Shown here piece by piece: positions 41,848 to 62,628 of a stretch of DNA of 64,000 nt. Under the pieces are notes generated by a model. The model searched no databases, was not told the DNA's origin, and was given only the letters and a program-made list of their open reading frames with translations. The position numbers were made by a program, and so were the translations under genes. The stretch's first letter is position 1. Each line of letters starts with the position of its first letter. Source of the DNA: Squalus acanthias (taxonomy: Eukaryota); NCBI GenBank assembly GCA_030390025.1, contig CM059431.1, positions 101,744,001 to 101,808,000 on the forward strand, read 5' to 3'.

Positions 41848-43365
41848 AAGAAAGACAGACTTACATTTCTATAGCGCCGTTCACGACCACCGGACGTCCC
41901 GAAGCACTTTACAGTCAATGAAATACTTTTCAAAGTGTGGTCACTGTTGTAATGTGGGAAACACGGCAGCCAGTTTGCGCACAGCAAGCTCCCACAAACA
42001 GCAATGTGATAATCACCGGATAATCTGTTTTTGTGATGTTGATTGAGGGATAAATATTGGCCCCAGGACACCAGGGAGAACTCCCCTGCTCTTCTTCGAA
42101 ATAGTGCCAGGGGATCTTTTACATCCAGCTGAGAGGGCAGACGGGGCCTCGGTTTAACGTCTCATCTGAAAGACGGCACCTCCGACAGTGCGGCGCTCCC
42201 TCAGTACTGCCCCTCCGACAGTGCGGCACTCCCTCAGTACTGCCCCTCCGACAGTGCGGCGCTCCCTTAGTACTGTCCCTCCGACAGTGCGGCGCTCCCT
42301 CAGTACTGCCCCTCCGACAGTGCGGCGCTCCCTCAGTACCGCCCCTCCGACAGTGCGGCGCTCCCTCAGTACTGCCCCTCCGACAGTGCGGCGCTCCCTC
42401 AGTACTGCCCCTCCGACAGTGCGGCGCTCCCTCAGTACTGCCCCTCTGACAGTGCGGCGCTCCCTCAGTACTGCCCCTCCGACAGTGCGGCACTCCCTCA
42501 GTACTGCCCCTCCGACAGTGCGGCGCTCCCTCAGTACTGCCCCTCCGACAGTGCGGCGCTCCCTCAGTACTGCCCCTCTGACAGTGCGGCGCTCCCTCAG
42601 TACTGCCCCTCCGACAGTGCGGCACTCCCTCAGTACTGCCCCTCCGACAGTGCGGCGCTCCCTCAGTACTGCCCCTCCGACACTGCGGCACTCCCTCAGT
42701 ACTGCCCCTCCGACAGTGCGGCGCTCCCTCAGTACTGCCCCTCCGACACTGCGGCACTCCCTCAGTACTGCCCCTCTGACAGTGCACCACTCACTCAGTA
42801 CTGCCCCTCCGACACTGCGGCACTCCCTCAGTACTGCCCCTCCCACAGTGCGGCGCTCCCTCAGTACTGCCCCTCCGACACTGCGGCACTCCCTCAGTAC
42901 TGCCCCTCTGACAGTGCACCACTCACTCAGTACTGCCCCTGTGCAGCACTCCCTCAGTTACTGCCCCTCCGACAGTGCGGCGCTCCCTCAGTACTGCCCC
43001 TCCGACACTGCGGCACTCCCTCAGTACTGCCCCTCTGACAGTGCACCACTCACTCAGTACTGCCCCTGTGCAGCACTCCCTCAGTTACTGCCCCTCCGAC
43101 AGTGCGGCGCTCCCTCAGTACTGCCCCTCCGACACTGCGGCACTCCCTCAGTACTGCCCCTCCCACAGTGCAGCGCTCCCTCAGTACTGCCCCTCCGACA
43201 GTGCGGCGCTCCCTCAGTACTGCCCCTCCGACAGTGCAGCGCTCCCTCAGCACTGCACTGGAATGTCAGCCTAGCTTTATGTGCTCAAGTCTCTGGAGTG
43301 GGACTTGAACCCACAACCTTCTGACTCGGAGGCGAGAGTGCTGCCCACTGAGCCACGACTGACAC
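41848..43365 (-). mobile_element. SacSINE1-like SINE containing an expanded 33-bp minisatellite
   Basis: SINE tail and core 41848-42178, head 43255-43365. Confidence 0.85.
42179..43255. repeat. 33-bp minisatellite x~32 with higher-order variants at the right end
   Basis: Direct reading; explains the STAPPTVRRSL-repeat ORFs. Confidence 0.95.
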
Positions 43366-43659
43366 ACAATTAACCGTACCAGGAACATTCTGAAAGTTAC
43401 TATGTAATGTTTTTTCTCATCCAAGTGACCCAACACAGATAAAACGCACTGACAGAAGCCCTTTTCATGTTGATAGCTGGTTGGTAATAGGGACATGAAG
43501 TTGGGTAGGTACAGGAATTCAGTTATTGGTATAAATCTAAGCTCAAAAGGTTTAATCCACAAATTAAGAACACTTTTCCAGGCTATGATTATATACTTGA
43601 AAAGGAAAACATTTTAGGGCTGTGGGGAAAGAGCGGGGTGAGTGGAACTACTTTGATAA

Positions 43660-50120: not shown

Positions 50121-50699
50121 TAAATGATTTTGCTTTCAAAAGCATTCATGTGTGGGTGTCAGATGGGGATGTGAAACGTATTTGTATTTCCCTTGATACG
50201 TCACACATGGATACATCTTCTCCCAGTCTGTAGTAACCGTGCATTCGAAGCTTAATGACTGTTTGATACGATACTGCAAGGTATGGCTCTGCCATCACAC
50301 GTACAGGGTTTTGATTCTGGATTGATGATGGTCAACTTTATTAATGTACAGCAGACTGATAATGTAACGTCATCCAGCTTAGAGTAGGTGGTCCATGCCT
50401 TAATGTCCAGACATGCTGTCCCGTGCAAGTGTCCAACATCAATCCTCCGCAGAGTCAGTTTACAGTGATTTTTTAAAATTTCTCTCTTTACTCTTTAGGG
50501 TAATCAGAGGTAAGATCAACCAGAGCTTTAAACTTTCCTAACTAATTGGTTTTTATTGACATTGAAGTGCAACAGGTTTTACAGCTAGAGGTTGATACAA
50601 CCTTTCAGTCAGAAATGTAACACGAAACTCCGAATGGCCAATTCTTTCTGCTTCGGGAGACTGAGGGGTTAATATTCCATCAACATTCTGCGTGGTGTT

Positions 50700-50877
50700 T
50701 GTCGTAAGAGTGAACTTAAAGTAAGCTTTAATCAACTAAAAAGGTGCTACATACAAAAGAGGTCTTACTCTATGCCTCTCCAGGATCCAACTGATCAGTC
50801 CAGTATTTATCCTGGACTAATCACAGGAAGTGATGCAATAAAGTTCGAGTCACAGGAAGCTGTATTGTGTTACCACA
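50700..50877 (-). repeat. 3' LTR, 178 bp
   Basis: Identical to 54931-55124 except for a 16-bp deletion. Confidence 0.95.
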
Positions 50878-50889
50878 TTCTCCCCCCCC
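50878..50889 (-). other. Polypurine tract
   Basis: - strand ggggggggagaa directly before the 3' LTR. Confidence 0.9.
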
Positions 50890-50895
50890 AAAAGA

Positions 50896-53800
50896 TTAGG
50901 AGGCCGGGATGCTCCCTCCATTTCGTAGCCGCTGGACGAGGGAGAGCCGCACCCGTTTGGGTTCTCGTAGCGGTAGAGGGTCCCTAGCCCGTTTACCCGT
51001 CGCGGGCCGTGGACCAGAGTCCGAGTGATCCAGCCCGCTCTGTGAGGGGTCAGGACGATCCTGACTGTGTACTGGTGCCCGAACGGGTGTCGGGCAGGGC
51101 TGTGGCAGATCCGTTTCCGAGCGTACGGTACGGGGTGGATCGTGGCTGCGCGTGCGAGCCCCGACGGGCTCATAGTCAGTCTGCCCCAGGTCGGCACGCT
51201 GGAGTGAGGTACCAGCCGGCGTCAGATCCAGATCGTGATGAGAGGCACCTGGCGAGCCCAGAGATGTACCTGGTACAATATCATCCCCTGGTGTCCCTCT
51301 ATGTTTTGGCGGGCAGGGAGCCAGATCCCGCAATGACACGGTAGATTCCCGACCGTCAGGATACCGAATATAGGCGTAGGTAGGTTTGACGTCAGTGAGC
51401 TCAACCTCATCTACCAGGGGGTCATTCTTAGACGCCCGGACATATCTTCGGAGTAGCACTGGTCCCGGTGCAGTCAGCCACGACGGGAGAGATATCCCAT
51501 AGGATGAGCGACGCTGAAATCGGAAGAACCGTTCATGAGGCGTCGTATTCATGGCGGTCGAAAGGAGGGACCGTGTGGAGTGTAATGCGTCTGGAAGTAC
51601 TGCTTCCCATTGCTGGTTGGGTAGGCCCCGAGATCTCAAAGCCAGACGTACCGCATTCCAGATGATGGCGTTAAAACGCTCGACTTGCCCATTCCCGACC
51701 GGATGATAAGGCGTTGTTTTGCTGGCAGCAATACCCCGTTCCGAGAGATAGGCCTTGAGTTCTCCTGACATAAAAGAAGGGCCCCGATCCGAATGAACAT
51801 AGGATGCTATGCCACAGAAAGCAAATACCTGCTCAAGGCAGCTGATAACCGTGGTCGTCAGCATATTGGGGCAGGGAAAGGCAAACGGAAAACAGGAATA
51901 CTCATCGACCATGGTCAATAGATAAGTGTTGCGAGTTGAAGAGGGCAACGGCCCCTTAAAATCGATGCTAAGCCGTTGCATTGGCTGGGTCGCATGTATG
52001 AGTATACCACCCGAGGGGCGGAAAAACCGAGGTTTCAATTCCGCACAGACTCTGCAGTCCGAGCACATCTTCTTTACATCCCCGGTAGAGAATGGGAGAT
52101 TTCGGGACCGCACGAAGTGTAGCATGCGAGTAACGCCCGGATGACACAACCCATCATGGATGTCTACGAGCGTAGAGGGTGCCATGGCGGAGCAGAATGC
52201 TCGTGTGAGGGTATCCGGAGCCACATTCTCCTTGCCAGGTCGATAGTGGATGGTGTAACCAAAAGAGGCCAATTCCAGCCGCCAAAGCTGGATTTTATTA
52301 TTTTTAATTTTGGTCCGTTTTCGATTATCGAGCATGAAGGCGACCGATCGCTGGTCCGTGATTAAGGTAAAGTGCTGGCGAGCTAGGAGATGACTCCACT
52401 TCCGTACTGCCTCTATGATGGCTGTAGCTTCTTTCTCGACTGGAGGATAATGTAGCTCGGCCCCTTGAAAAGTCCTGGACAAAAATGCCACCGGACGACC
52501 TTCCTGATTCAGAGTGGCCGAGATCGCCATCTCCGAGGCATCACACTCAACAACAAAAGGAAGACTCTCATCGATGGAGTGAAAAGCCGCTTTCTCCAAC
52601 TGTTTTTTCAGGAGGTTAAAGGCTGCAACAGCCGCTGTGTCTAGTGGGAATGTGCTGGCCTTCAGTAGAGGTTGGATTCGGTCCGAGAAGTTAGGAATCC
52701 ATTTAGCATAGTATGCAAACAGGCCGAGGGCCCGGCGCAAGGAGGCCGGATTCTTAGGTGGCGGGAGTTCTTGGAGTGGGCGAAGCCTTTCAGGGTCAGG
52801 TTTAATGATGCCATTGCCCACACAATAGCCAAGGATGTTGATGGTTGGTTGTGACTCAATGGATTTAGCCGCATTTAATGTCAAATTACGGTGCTGGAGT
52901 GCATCCCAAAATCGTTGGAGATTGGCGTCATGTTCCCGCTGATTGCGACCTGCGACAGTAATATTGTCCAGATAAGGAAACGTATCCTTCAAGTCTTCCT
53001 GTTTGACCAGGTCATCCATTGCTCGCTGGAAGACAGCCACTCCATTAGTGACCCCAAAGGGGAGGCGACGAAATTGATACAGCCGTCCATTGGCTTCAAA
53101 GGCCGTATACTGCTTGTCTGAGACCTTCAAGGGTACCTGATGATAGGCACTTTTCAGATCACATGTTGAGAACACCGTGTACTCAGCCAATTTATTAACC
53201 ATATCATCGATGCGCGGCAATGGGTATGCATCCAAGTCCGTATATTGATTGATGGTCTGTGAATAGTCAATGCACAGCCGTTTCTTGTGAGGTTGTAGAG
53301 GGTTCTTAACAATAACGACCTGGGCGCGCCATGGCGACGAACAAGGCTCGATGATATCCTCTGCTAAAAGCCGAGAAATCTCAGCCGCAATAAAAGACTG
53401 GTCTTCCTGACTGAAATGTCGTGACTTTGTTATAATCGGTTTGCATCGAGGAGGGATACTGGTAAACAGTGAGGGTTCATCCAGTGAAGCTGCTGACAAT
53501 GCACAGAACGGTAATCGAGGTAGTATATTAGAAATAGTGAGTTCAGGTTTGGATCCGCCGAACTCAATGGTGAGCTTCTTATGCTGCTTTTGAAAATCCA
53601 GCCCTAAGATAAGATCACTACATAAGTCCTTGAGCACCAAAAGCCGGGTGGAGGGATACCTGTGACCATTAAGTGTTATTTCAACCATACAAAAGCCAGA
53701 AATTCTGGTATTAAGTGATGACTGAGCCATCGCAATTGCCTGGTCCGATGGGAAAACATGCAGCTTTAACTCTGCAACAATCTGTTCCCTAATGAAACTA

Positions 53801-54852
53801 TCAGTGCTACCGGAGTCAATTAAGGCATCTAAAGTATGTCCATTAATTGATGCTTTTGTAGCTGCATGGAATAGGTTCTGAGGACAAGCAGCTGTAATTG
53901 GTGTCGTTGCACAAAGAGTGGCTGAAACTCTATGTGTGTTTCTTCGAGAGGAAACCCGAGAGGAAGCACGATAGATTTTAGCCGGAACATCTTGATAGGC
54001 CCTTACCGGGGCAGTTCGGTAGGACTTAGCTTGATAAGCCCTCGTAGAGGCTCTTGATAGGCAAACCTTTGCAAAATGACCCTTTTTGTTGCAATGACTG
54101 CAAAACGCATTGCGAGCAGGGCAGAATTTCCGAGGGTGAAACTCATCACCACAAAAGAAGCATTTCTTAGATTGCCAAGAGGCTGCCACAGTGGGGTCAT
54201 CATCCTCTTCATCAGTGAAGTCATCAGATTGATCGTCAGGGATAAAGTCCTCCCTAATAGAGTTCACCTGTGGCCTCTTAAATTGCCTGACTGTAGTTAA
54301 GGCAGCAGACCGAGGTCTGGGCACTGTATAAAGGTCTGCATTTCTTTTTGCCAGATCTAGAGAGCAAGCCATGTCATAAGCTCTCTGAAGCTCAAGTGTC
54401 TTACTTTCCAGTAGACGCTGGCATATAAATGGGGAGGCAAGCCCGCAGATGAAAGCATCACGGATCATTTCTTCACGGTACAGCTCAGCTGAGGCCGCCT
54501 GAAAGTTACAGTCCATACTAAGTCTGCGAAGCTCTTGGAGGAATTTATCAATGGATTCCTCCGGCCCTTGTTGGGCTGTAGCTAGTAGATGTCTGGCATA
54601 GACCTCATTCGGTGTCTTAGTATATAGTCTCTTAAGCGTCCGAATTGCCTCCTCGTAACTGCCCCATTCCTCCACATACTGAAATACATTCGGGGTGACA
54701 CAGTTGATGAGTATCCGCAACTTTGAGTCATCATCAGCCTTGCAATATTCAAGAAAATTGTCAAACGTGCGATACCAGTGTTTCCACACCTTACTGGCTG
54801 CTGGGGTGTTTGGTTCCAAGTCAAGACGCGATGGTTTAAGGATGTTTTCCAT
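50896..54852 (-). CDS. Gag-Pol polyprotein, 1318 aa
   Basis: Two CX2CX4HX4C knuckles (CFFCGDEFHPRKFC, CSHCNKKGHFAKVC), protease LIDSGS, RT (DLKSAYHQ, LPFG, YLDN), RNase H (CDAS, EKE, TDQ, PDTLTR), integrase HHCC + IDF/SDRG/VERFN. Confidence 0.95.
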   Translation of the reverse strand: MENILKPSRLDLEPNTPAASKVWKHWYRTFDNFLEYCKADDDSKLRILINCVTPNVFQYVEEWGSYEEAIRTLKRLYTKTPNEVYARHLLATAQQGPEESIDKFLQELRRLSMDCNFQAASAELYREEMIRDAFICGLASPFICQRLLESKTLELQRAYDMACSLDLAKRNADLYTVPRPRSAALTTVRQFKRPQVNSIREDFIPDDQSDDFTDEEDDDPTVAASWQSKKCFFCGDEFHPRKFCPARNAFCSHCNKKGHFAKVCLSRASTRAYQAKSYRTAPVRAYQDVPAKIYRASSRVSSRRNTHRVSATLCATTPITAACPQNLFHAATKASINGHTLDALIDSGSTDSFIREQIVAELKLHVFPSDQAIAMAQSSLNTRISGFCMVEITLNGHRYPSTRLLVLKDLCSDLILGLDFQKQHKKLTIEFGGSKPELTISNILPRLPFCALSAASLDEPSLFTSIPPRCKPIITKSRHFSQEDQSFIAAEISRLLAEDIIEPCSSPWRAQVVIVKNPLQPHKKRLCIDYSQTINQYTDLDAYPLPRIDDMVNKLAEYTVFSTCDLKSAYHQVPLKVSDKQYTAFEANGRLYQFRRLPFGVTNGVAVFQRAMDDLVKQEDLKDTFPYLDNITVAGRNQREHDANLQRFWDALQHRNLTLNAAKSIESQPTINILGYCVGNGIIKPDPERLRPLQELPPPKNPASLRRALGLFAYYAKWIPNFSDRIQPLLKASTFPLDTAAVAAFNLLKKQLEKAAFHSIDESLPFVVECDASEMAISATLNQEGRPVAFLSRTFQGAELHYPPVEKEATAIIEAVRKWSHLLARQHFTLITDQRSVAFMLDNRKRTKIKNNKIQLWRLELASFGYTIHYRPGKENVAPDTLTRAFCSAMAPSTLVDIHDGLCHPGVTRMLHFVRSRNLPFSTGDVKKMCSDCRVCAELKPRFFRPSGGILIHATQPMQRLSIDFKGPLPSSTRNTYLLTMVDEYSCFPFAFPCPNMLTTTVISCLEQVFAFCGIASYVHSDRGPSFMSGELKAYLSERGIAASKTTPYHPVGNGQVERFNAIIWNAVRLALRSRGLPNQQWEAVLPDALHSTRSLLSTAMNTTPHERFFRFQRRSSYGISLPSWLTAPGPVLLRRYVRASKNDPLVDEVELTDVKPTYAYIRYPDGRESTVSLRDLAPCPPKHRGTPGDDIVPGTSLGSPGASHHDLDLTPAGTSLQRADLGQTDYEPVGARTRSHDPPRTVRSETDLPQPCPTPVRAPVHSQDRPDPSQSGLDHSDSGPRPATGKRARDPLPLREPKRVRLSLVQRLRNGGSIPAS

Positions 54853-54930
54853 GATGGGTGATTCCCTGGATCCTTAGTTCCGAGTTCGTCCAAAAAGTTT
54901 GAGTGCGAAGTTTTCCAAAGTTGATTAAAT

Positions 54931-55124
54931 TGTCGTAAGAATGAGCCTTATGCGTGGTGAACTTAAAGTAAGCTTTAATCAACTAAAAAGGTGCTACATA
55001 CAAAAGAGGTCTTACTCTATGCCTCTCCAGGATCCAACTGATCAGTCCAGTATTTATCCTGGACTAATCACAGGAAGTGATGCAATAAAGTTCGAGTCAC
55101 AGGAAGCTGTATTGTGTTACCACA
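54931..55124 (-). repeat. 5' LTR, 194 bp
   Basis: - strand TGTGGTAAC...TTACGACA with GATAAATA (55051-55058) and ATTAAA (54974-54979). Confidence 0.95.
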
Positions 55125-55149
55125 GTGTTCATCTGGTCTGTCTCTGGAA

Positions 55150-62469: not shown

Positions 62470-62628
62470 ACCCTCCGACAGTGGAGCGCTCCCTCAGTAC
62501 TGCCCCTCCGACAGTGCACTGAAGTATCGGTCTAAATTTTGTGCTGAAGTGTCTGGAGTGGGACTTGAACAAATAACCTTCTGACTCGGAGGCGAGGGTG
62601 CTGCCCACTGAGCCACGGCTGACACTGT
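62470..62628 (-). mobile_element. SacSINE1-like SINE head with incipient 33-bp duplication
   Basis: ccctccgacagtg occurs twice, 33 bp apart, followed by the tRNA-like head. Confidence 0.75.

Follow-up and report, generated by a model that had tools for sequence, protein, structure and literature searches.

A self-complementary primer-binding site that covaries with the LTR suggests Tf1-like self-priming in a young Ty3/gypsy element of Squalus acanthias

A complete LTR retrotransposon lies on the minus strand of the window, the 64,000-nucleotide stretch of Squalus acanthias DNA analysed here (contig CM059431.1, positions 101,744,001 to 101,808,000). This young, high-copy Ty3/gypsy element probably uses its own RNA to prime minus-strand DNA synthesis, as Tf1 does. 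Self-priming had been proposed in a sequence-only reading of this stretch, and it gains support, as far as sequence can carry it, from pairing between LTR and primer site that covaries in 19 relatives and from the lack of a tRNA-type site. Self-priming is established for Tf1 and Tf2 and has been proposed for Tj1. In Tf1, the RNA's initial 11 bases are described as pairing with the primer site, and RNase H as cutting between bases 11 and 12 (PMC7175516, PMC4600332).

Anatomy of the element and its LTR junction

The element spans 4,425 bp (55124..50700, read directly from the sequence); all of its features given below are on the minus strand. Its 5′ LTR (54931..55124; 194 nt, TGTGG...CGACA) and 3′ LTR (50700..50877; 178 nt) form a direct repeat, and a 5-bp target-site duplication, AACAC, flanks the element on both sides (55125..55129, that is, 55129-55125 as read, and 50695-50699). 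The LTR boundary was fixed in three ways: by the 3′ LTR (50877..50700), by the AACAC duplication, and by a polypurine tract (GGGGGGGGAGAA; TTTTGGGGGGGGAGAA at 50878..50893) that abuts the 3′ LTR. For the 5′ LTR, 27 other 3′ LTRs served together with the target duplication to set the boundaries. Tracts resembling GGGGAGAA precede the 3′ LTR in relatives, and 5-bp target duplications were also seen in two of these (L067 and L082). Beyond the primer site, the rest of the leader (54853..54918, read directly) extends to the ATG of a single gag-pol reading frame (50896..54852; ATG at 54852, stop at 50898-50896). Domain calls within this frame placed protease at 53593-53856, reverse transcriptase (RT) at 52825-53286, RNase H at 52261-52569, an integrase zinc domain at 52027-52173, and the integrase core at 51700-51990. 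The order protease, RT, RNase H, integrase, together with the TG...CA LTRs, the polypurine tract, and the short target duplication, is that of Ty3/gypsy (Metaviridae) elements.

The 3′ LTR of the window copy lacks 16 nt of U5 (CACGCATAAGGCTCAT), which correspond to 54956-54941 of the 5′ LTR (deletion point 50710/50711). This deletion is private to the window copy, the bases being kept in 27 of 27 other 3′ LTRs compared. Apart from this gap, the LTRs match at all 178 nt, and the insertion is thus very recent. A DNA search of the 3.7-Gb host genome with the 5′ LTR and leader returned 1,413 first-look candidates, and 40 of the 40 that were scored showed 99-100% identity; the many candidates and the near-identity of the scored copies mark the family as young and abundant. 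In a subfamily of the same genome (loci L042-L060), the final 150 nt ahead of the polypurine tract contain ~39 additional bases and show 88% identity to the window copy; the LTR, the arm, and the end of the LTR do not differ from those of that copy. Sequencing runs found to carry the element numbered 14, from six studies, and none is on record as RNA. Contigs of four sequencing runs (X1-X4) cover the element but are interrupted at the LTR edges, where their loose ends vary, a DNA-like pattern.

At the end of the 5′ LTR, a single unpaired A (54930) separates the LTR from the candidate primer-binding site, TTTAATCAACT (54919..54929). This 11-mer is the exact reverse complement of AGTTGATTAAA (54974..54984; LTR positions 141-151), an arm within the LTR and the candidate self-primer; 44 nt separate the two. 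The sequence-only reading had described this layout of LTR end, A, and 11-mer, as well as the perfect complement 44 nt away, and direct reading confirmed both, coordinates included. The last six bases of the arm are ATTAAA, a poly(A)-signal-like hexamer, and a small stem-loop (GCUUACUUUAAGU, 54961..54973), seen in the centroid fold of the element, directly follows the arm. No TGG occurs within 13 nt of the 5′ LTR end. Both 11-mers are kept in 30 of 30 other 5′ copies of the same genome; since these genomic copies are 99-100% identical, they provide no within-family covariation signal.

Covariation of primer site and LTR arm among relatives

With the RT-to-integrase part as query, a protein search scored 8,000 candidates, of which 1,257 proteins reached E <= 0.001. 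The best 120 of these matches are 54-88% identical to the query, and the hosts named among them are shrimp, copepod, tunicate, mussel, sea anemone, and whipworm. At the polyprotein level, identity is 58-76% to shrimp, copepod, tunicate, mussel, and sea anemone proteins and 88% to one metagenome protein. Such identity is high for hosts so distant and brings to mind the transfer across phyla that has been reported for Steamer-like elements.

Scanning of metagenome contigs with an alignment of 16 homologue proteins gave 80 loci of 44-68% protein identity. A direct repeat surrounds the frame in 22 of the 80; four of these (L061, L066, L087, and L102) are terminal overlaps of permuted contigs, and 18 are true LTR pairs. 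In all 18, the 5′ LTR ends in CA and is followed by one A and then T(T/C)T..., with TGG in none. The absence of a TGG-type tRNA site after the LTR, to which the earlier reading had drawn attention, is thus confirmed in the window and in 18 of 18 relatives with a resolvable LTR pair. A tRNA-primed sister group was also sought, and 22 of 22 further loci had no resolvable LTR pair. A scan of viral contigs found no relative. Read as transcripts, none of the metagenome contigs has its start at the arm or a poly(A) end. Several contigs of ~4 kb (L061, L065, L066, L069, L081, and L102) are circularly permuted and contain a single LTR along with the internal part, their termini overlapping; either multicopy elements were collapsed in assembly or these contigs represent one-LTR circles.

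We compared 22 elements anchored at the LTR end, 19 of them distinct, the relatives being mostly environmental contigs. In 19 of 19, the single unpaired A follows the LTR, and the site starts exactly one base after it and pairs over 11-17 nt with a word of the element's own LTR located 20-65 nt before the LTR end. Positions 1-13 of the duplex are paired in at least 16 of the 19, and two to four types of Watson-Crick pair occur at positions 4-9 and 11-13. Pairing fades between positions 14 and 17 and is at chance level by 17. The site differs between families (TCAACT, CTAGCT, ACGACT, TTCGACT, ACAAAC, TTCCACT, and others), and each variant is matched by its own LTR. Examples of such family-specific pairs of LTR arm and primer site are TTTAGCTAGTTAAA with TTTAACTAGCTAAA, TGAGTCGTTTAAA with TTTAAACGACTCA, TTTCTAGTCGAATAAA with TTTATTCGACTAGAAA, CTTTTGTTTGTTAAA with TTTAACAAACAAAAG, and TTTAGTGGAATAAA with TTTATTCCACTAAA. 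In 15 of 19 cases, the element's own LTR holds an exact complement of the 11-mer, whereas the LTR of another element does so in only 15 of 342 cross pairs. The four elements without it (L105, L118, L125, and L133) carry one G-U pair or one or two mismatches in the first 11 pairs, and the LTR pairs of at least L118 and L125 are merely 94-95% identical. Further exact cases were found in permuted contigs (L061, L066, L099, L106, and L140), plus L069 by eye.

Pair counts on alignment A2 revealed 90.8% of 304 cells as paired versus 72.7% in shuffled controls, a value that 0 of 500 shuffles reached. On the same alignment, 12 of 16 pairs have changes on both sides, the covariation score is 0.488 (against 0.151), and double-change cells number 54 against 17.3 expected; sliding the partner by 1-3 columns brings pairing down to 27-50%. 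The PBS/LTR covariation that the sequence-only reading had named as a check is thus found across 19 distinct relatives, and complementarity is kept, not lost, in sister families.

Minimum-energy folding from the arm through the site yields the full duplex in 17 of the 19 elements, only part of it in L133, and no such duplex in L125. Fold energies lie 2.9 to 6.5 standard deviations below the shuffle mean in 16 of 19. The hairpin of the window element itself is the weakest (z = -1.56), with 13 of 200 shuffles folding as well. In most relatives, a short predicted helix, (G/A)CCU...AGG(U/C), has its first base immediately after the arm and would therefore stack on the duplex. A helix next to the duplex recalls the structured U5 that Tf1 is described as needing (PMC4600332, PMC7175516).

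Proposed self-priming and competing readings of the duplex

In the proposed cycle, the transcript would begin in the LTR at AGTTGATTAAA or a few bases before it. This 5′ word would fold back over the short stem-loop and ~40 nt of U5 and pair with TTTAATCAACT, and the RNase H of the element would cut after ...UUAAA, at the junction between duplex and stem-loop. The resulting 11-nt RNA primer would be AGUUGAUUAAA, and its freed 3′ OH would be extended across the single A and 43 nt of U5/R. The short strong-stop DNA would then jump to the 3′ R, and the plus strand would later copy the RNA primer, rewriting the primer site in each cycle, so that arm and site would stay perfectly matched within each family. 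The arm should lie in R, because the strong-stop DNA would otherwise have no homology at the RNA 3′ end; this placement fits the AAUAAA-like hexamer at the end of the arm, by virtue of which the same word is probably also the poly(A) signal in the 3′ LTR. No unpaired 5′ overhang would be expected, since plus-strand synthesis would copy any such overhang and thereby prevent the second jump. The start site would then be marked by the loss of pairing and, in the window element, would be at or near 54984.

The strongest rival, in our view an unlikely one, is that the duplex is a regulatory RNA structure and that another primer is used. Such a structure could hide the 5′ AAUAAA-like hexamer by pairing it with sequence found only downstream of the 5′ LTR, or it could act in packaging or dimerisation. 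Of the 19 distinct elements, 12 have AATAAA or ATTAAA at the end of the arm and the rest have GTTAAA, TTTAAA, or near variants there; the hexamer lies inside the helix in predicted folds; and a poly(A)-masking helix would covary too. However, masking requires no fixed anchoring, whereas the 3′ arm stands one base after the LTR in every distinct element, which is the position of a minus-strand primer. Moreover, no other primer site is apparent. The LTR-to-ATG leader measures only 16-20 nt in L082, L067, and L084, where the paired site nearly fills it, leaving no room for a second primer site, and TGG, as noted above, is lacking in every resolvable relative. Poly(A) masking and self-priming may well coexist. 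Priming by a tRNA, priming from the 3′ R copy, and coincidence all rank far below a masking helix in likelihood.

Priming in trans or from the arm copy in the 3′ R is very improbable. The sequence-only reading had tentatively placed the start well upstream of the arm, with a geometry that may differ from that of Tf1 and the 3′ R copy as a conceivable primer; this earlier start derived from the location of a TATA-like GGATAAATAC ~65 nt upstream of the arm in the window element. A second copy of the arm does exist in the 3′ LTR (50737-50727), and should the hexamer act as the poly(A) signal, this copy would fall within R. Yet cleavage after ...UUAAA would be required for a 3′ copy as well, and a long 5′ stretch of it would be left unpaired. 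The decay of pairing 11-17 nt from the putative cut is what would be expected if the primer were the very 5′ end of the RNA, and it fits a start at the duplex edge, as in Tf1. The upstream start, a geometry unlike that of Tf1, and the 3′ R primer find no support in these data. A search by eye upstream of the arm in relatives revealed no TATA or initiator box conserved at a fixed distance, just a loose (T/C)(T/A)AGT near the edge of the duplex and, 10-25 nt upstream of the arm, a tract similar to TTTTGTNTGTG, neither of which carries weight in our reading. The window element has no clear TATA box ~30 nt before the arm. The T/G-rich tract of TTTTGTNTGTG type (54985-55010 in the window element, and in many relatives) might function in the core promoter or as an upstream poly(A) element; UGUA words occur in some elements.

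Priming at the site by a host tRNA, tRNA half, or tRNA fragment, with the LTR match incidental, is scarcely credible. A tRNA 3′ end used as primer would need TGG at the LTR junction, which has it in 0 of 19 distinct elements. Furthermore, the family-specific changes in the site, each matched by its own LTR, cannot be explained by a single conserved host tRNA or other RNA. Such priming is nevertheless the rule in the closest described elements, with tRNA-Leu sites reported for Steamer, C9, and C10 (PMC8905726) and a tRNA-Asn site for MchSLE1 (PMC11046912), and half-tRNA primers are reported in copia lineages (PMC6317226). TGGTGTCAGAAG, the Steamer site, occurs neither at the window junction nor in any of the 168 loci examined. 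An Rfam tRNA search of the host genome gave 63 matches, and 20 short stretches were compared. These 20 host tRNA genes, a very partial sample of two isotypes only (Lys(UUU) and Cys(GCA)), have no complement longer than 7 nt in the leader or site. ARAGORN called 0 tRNAs in the whole window.

The likelihood of a chance inverted repeat is negligible: the word is AT rich and 238 of 127,578 window positions (0.19%) have an 11-mer with its exact reverse complement in the preceding 200 nt, but only 8 of 20,000 dinucleotide-preserving shuffles of the window LTR contain, for any 11-mer that begins 0-3 nt past the LTR, its exact complement, and the same anchored pairing with different letters in 19 distinct elements is refuted as coincidence by the A2 pair count.

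Lineage and relation to known self-primed elements

The sequence-only reading had noted a two-knuckle Gag without a recognisable integrase chromodomain and had labelled the element a non-chromovirus. Motif reading located two CCHC zinc knuckles at 54061..54162 (residues 238-251 and 258-271 of the stop-to-stop frame), and the C-terminal 267 residues after the integrase core (50899..51699) matched neither the chromodomain family PF00385 nor any other Pfam family, even at E <= 10. PF00385 was likewise found in 0 of the 120 listed homologues. Among 15 aligned homologues, seven have two CCHC arrays, three have one, and five have none; four of these five are shorter than 1,000 aa and presumably truncated. 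Chromovirus nucleocapsids are described as usually having one CCHC array and those of Mag and Micropia/Mdg3 as usually having two, and the same account, as of 2008, describes no chromoviruses in protostomes and tunicates (PMC2577118). The missing chromodomain, the two CCHC arrays, and the protostome and tunicate relatives therefore back the non-chromovirus label. Mean LTR lengths in published training sets are 572 nt for sushi and 174 nt for Mag C (PMC3601003), and the LTRs of our relatives measure ~150-250 nt. With two CCHC arrays instead of one, a single gag-pol frame, short LTRs, and no chromodomain, the element thus resembles the Mag/C-clade (SURL, Steamer) and not the Tf1/sushi lineage. 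The C-clade is the most abundant gypsy clade in metazoans. Membership of the window element in it is a reasoned guess, made by comparing features with published descriptions.

The accounts on which we draw place experimental proof of self-priming in fission-yeast elements only and treat it, within gypsy, as a mark of the Tf1/sushi chromovirus branch. Predictions of self-priming extend to the Tf1/sushi group, including its vertebrate members, to the Tcn1 clade, and to TAR copia elements (PMC6317226). Like Tf1 and Tf2 of Schizosaccharomyces pombe and Tj1 of S. japonicus, the window element has an LTR-adjacent site complementary to RNA derived from its own LTR instead of to a tRNA, an 11-nt core duplex, and a structured U5 between the arms; the single gag-pol frame is as in Tf1. 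It differs from them in lacking an integrase chromodomain, in its two CCHC arrays, in a duplex that varies from 11 to 17 nt between families, in an arm ending in an AAUAAA-like hexamer, and in the short LTRs and animal hosts, protostomes included, of its group; it is, besides, known here from sequence alone. Vertebrate elements of the sushi group were reportedly predicted to self-prime by Butler et al. in 2001. These share with the window element the predicted self-priming of a gypsy element in a vertebrate genome, but they are chromodomain-bearing chromoviruses with, as given above, much longer LTRs. The self-primed elements described from plant and fungal hosts also have a self-complementary site in place of a tRNA site and are likewise predicted from sequence, but they belong to other superfamilies or to the chromovirus branch (PMC6317226).

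Steamer and other C-clade (SURL) elements are similar in length (~4.4-5 kb), in their one gag-pol frame, two zinc fingers, and TGT..ACA LTRs of 150-220 nt (PMC11046912, PMC8905726, PMC2577118), and in being hosted by aquatic animals of several phyla (PMC11046912, PMC8905726). The published difference lies at the junction, where Steamer, C9, and C10 have the tRNA-Leu site directly after the LTR (PMC8905726) and MchSLE1 its tRNA-Asn site (PMC11046912), whereas the window element has its own complement. A full-text literature search, whose coverage leaves out older subscription papers (e.g., those on Jule and SURL) and database notes, found no paper linking self-priming with Mag, SURL, or the C-clade. 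The element would thus be a case, backed by covariation, of a known mechanism in a lineage where it is apparently unreported. If so, primer choice has switched within or next to the Mag/C-clade, whose best known members use tRNAs, and annotation pipelines that seek only tRNA primer sites would mislabel thousands of intact elements as site-less. A near-identical family of more than 1,000 candidate copies in one genome would also be natural material for mapping the transcription start, the cut, and strong-stop DNA.

It is possible, and we put it forward tentatively, that a large chromodomain-less gypsy clade of aquatic animals of several phyla, very active in this genome and bearing a Y-x-D-N motif, has abandoned tRNA priming. 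A single LTR word of 11-17 nt might then serve as transcript start, as poly(A) signal in the 3′ LTR, and as minus-strand primer cut right after the hexamer, with arm and site evolving in concert; independence from tRNAs may ease movement between phyla.

The motif in question is at the RT active site, which in the window element reads YLDN in place of the usual Y-x-D-D (52960-52971; residues 634-637 of the frame). Y-(L/I)-D-N, once F-L-D-N, is present in 14 of 15 aligned homologues covering the motif. Similarly, 30 of the 33 metagenome loci with the motif (within L061-L140) have Y(L/M/V)DN and three have YLDD. In the host genome, YLDD is also the motif of other gypsy families (L142, L143, and L147). 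The YLDD relatives L069 and L106 also have a self-complementary site, so YLDN and the self-site are not strictly linked. The full-text literature search found no mention of YLDN, YXDN, or YIDN together with reverse transcriptase.

Two further kinds of repeat were seen in the window. A tRNA-like repeat of SINE type is present in two copies of 89 nt, 91% identical to each other, at 43277-43365 and 62537-62625, without an ARAGORN tRNA call. A long tandem array with a 33-bp unit, unrelated to the element, lies upstream in the window, occupies 42041-43386, and appears in the repeat finder as ~28 overlapping 300-nt copies.
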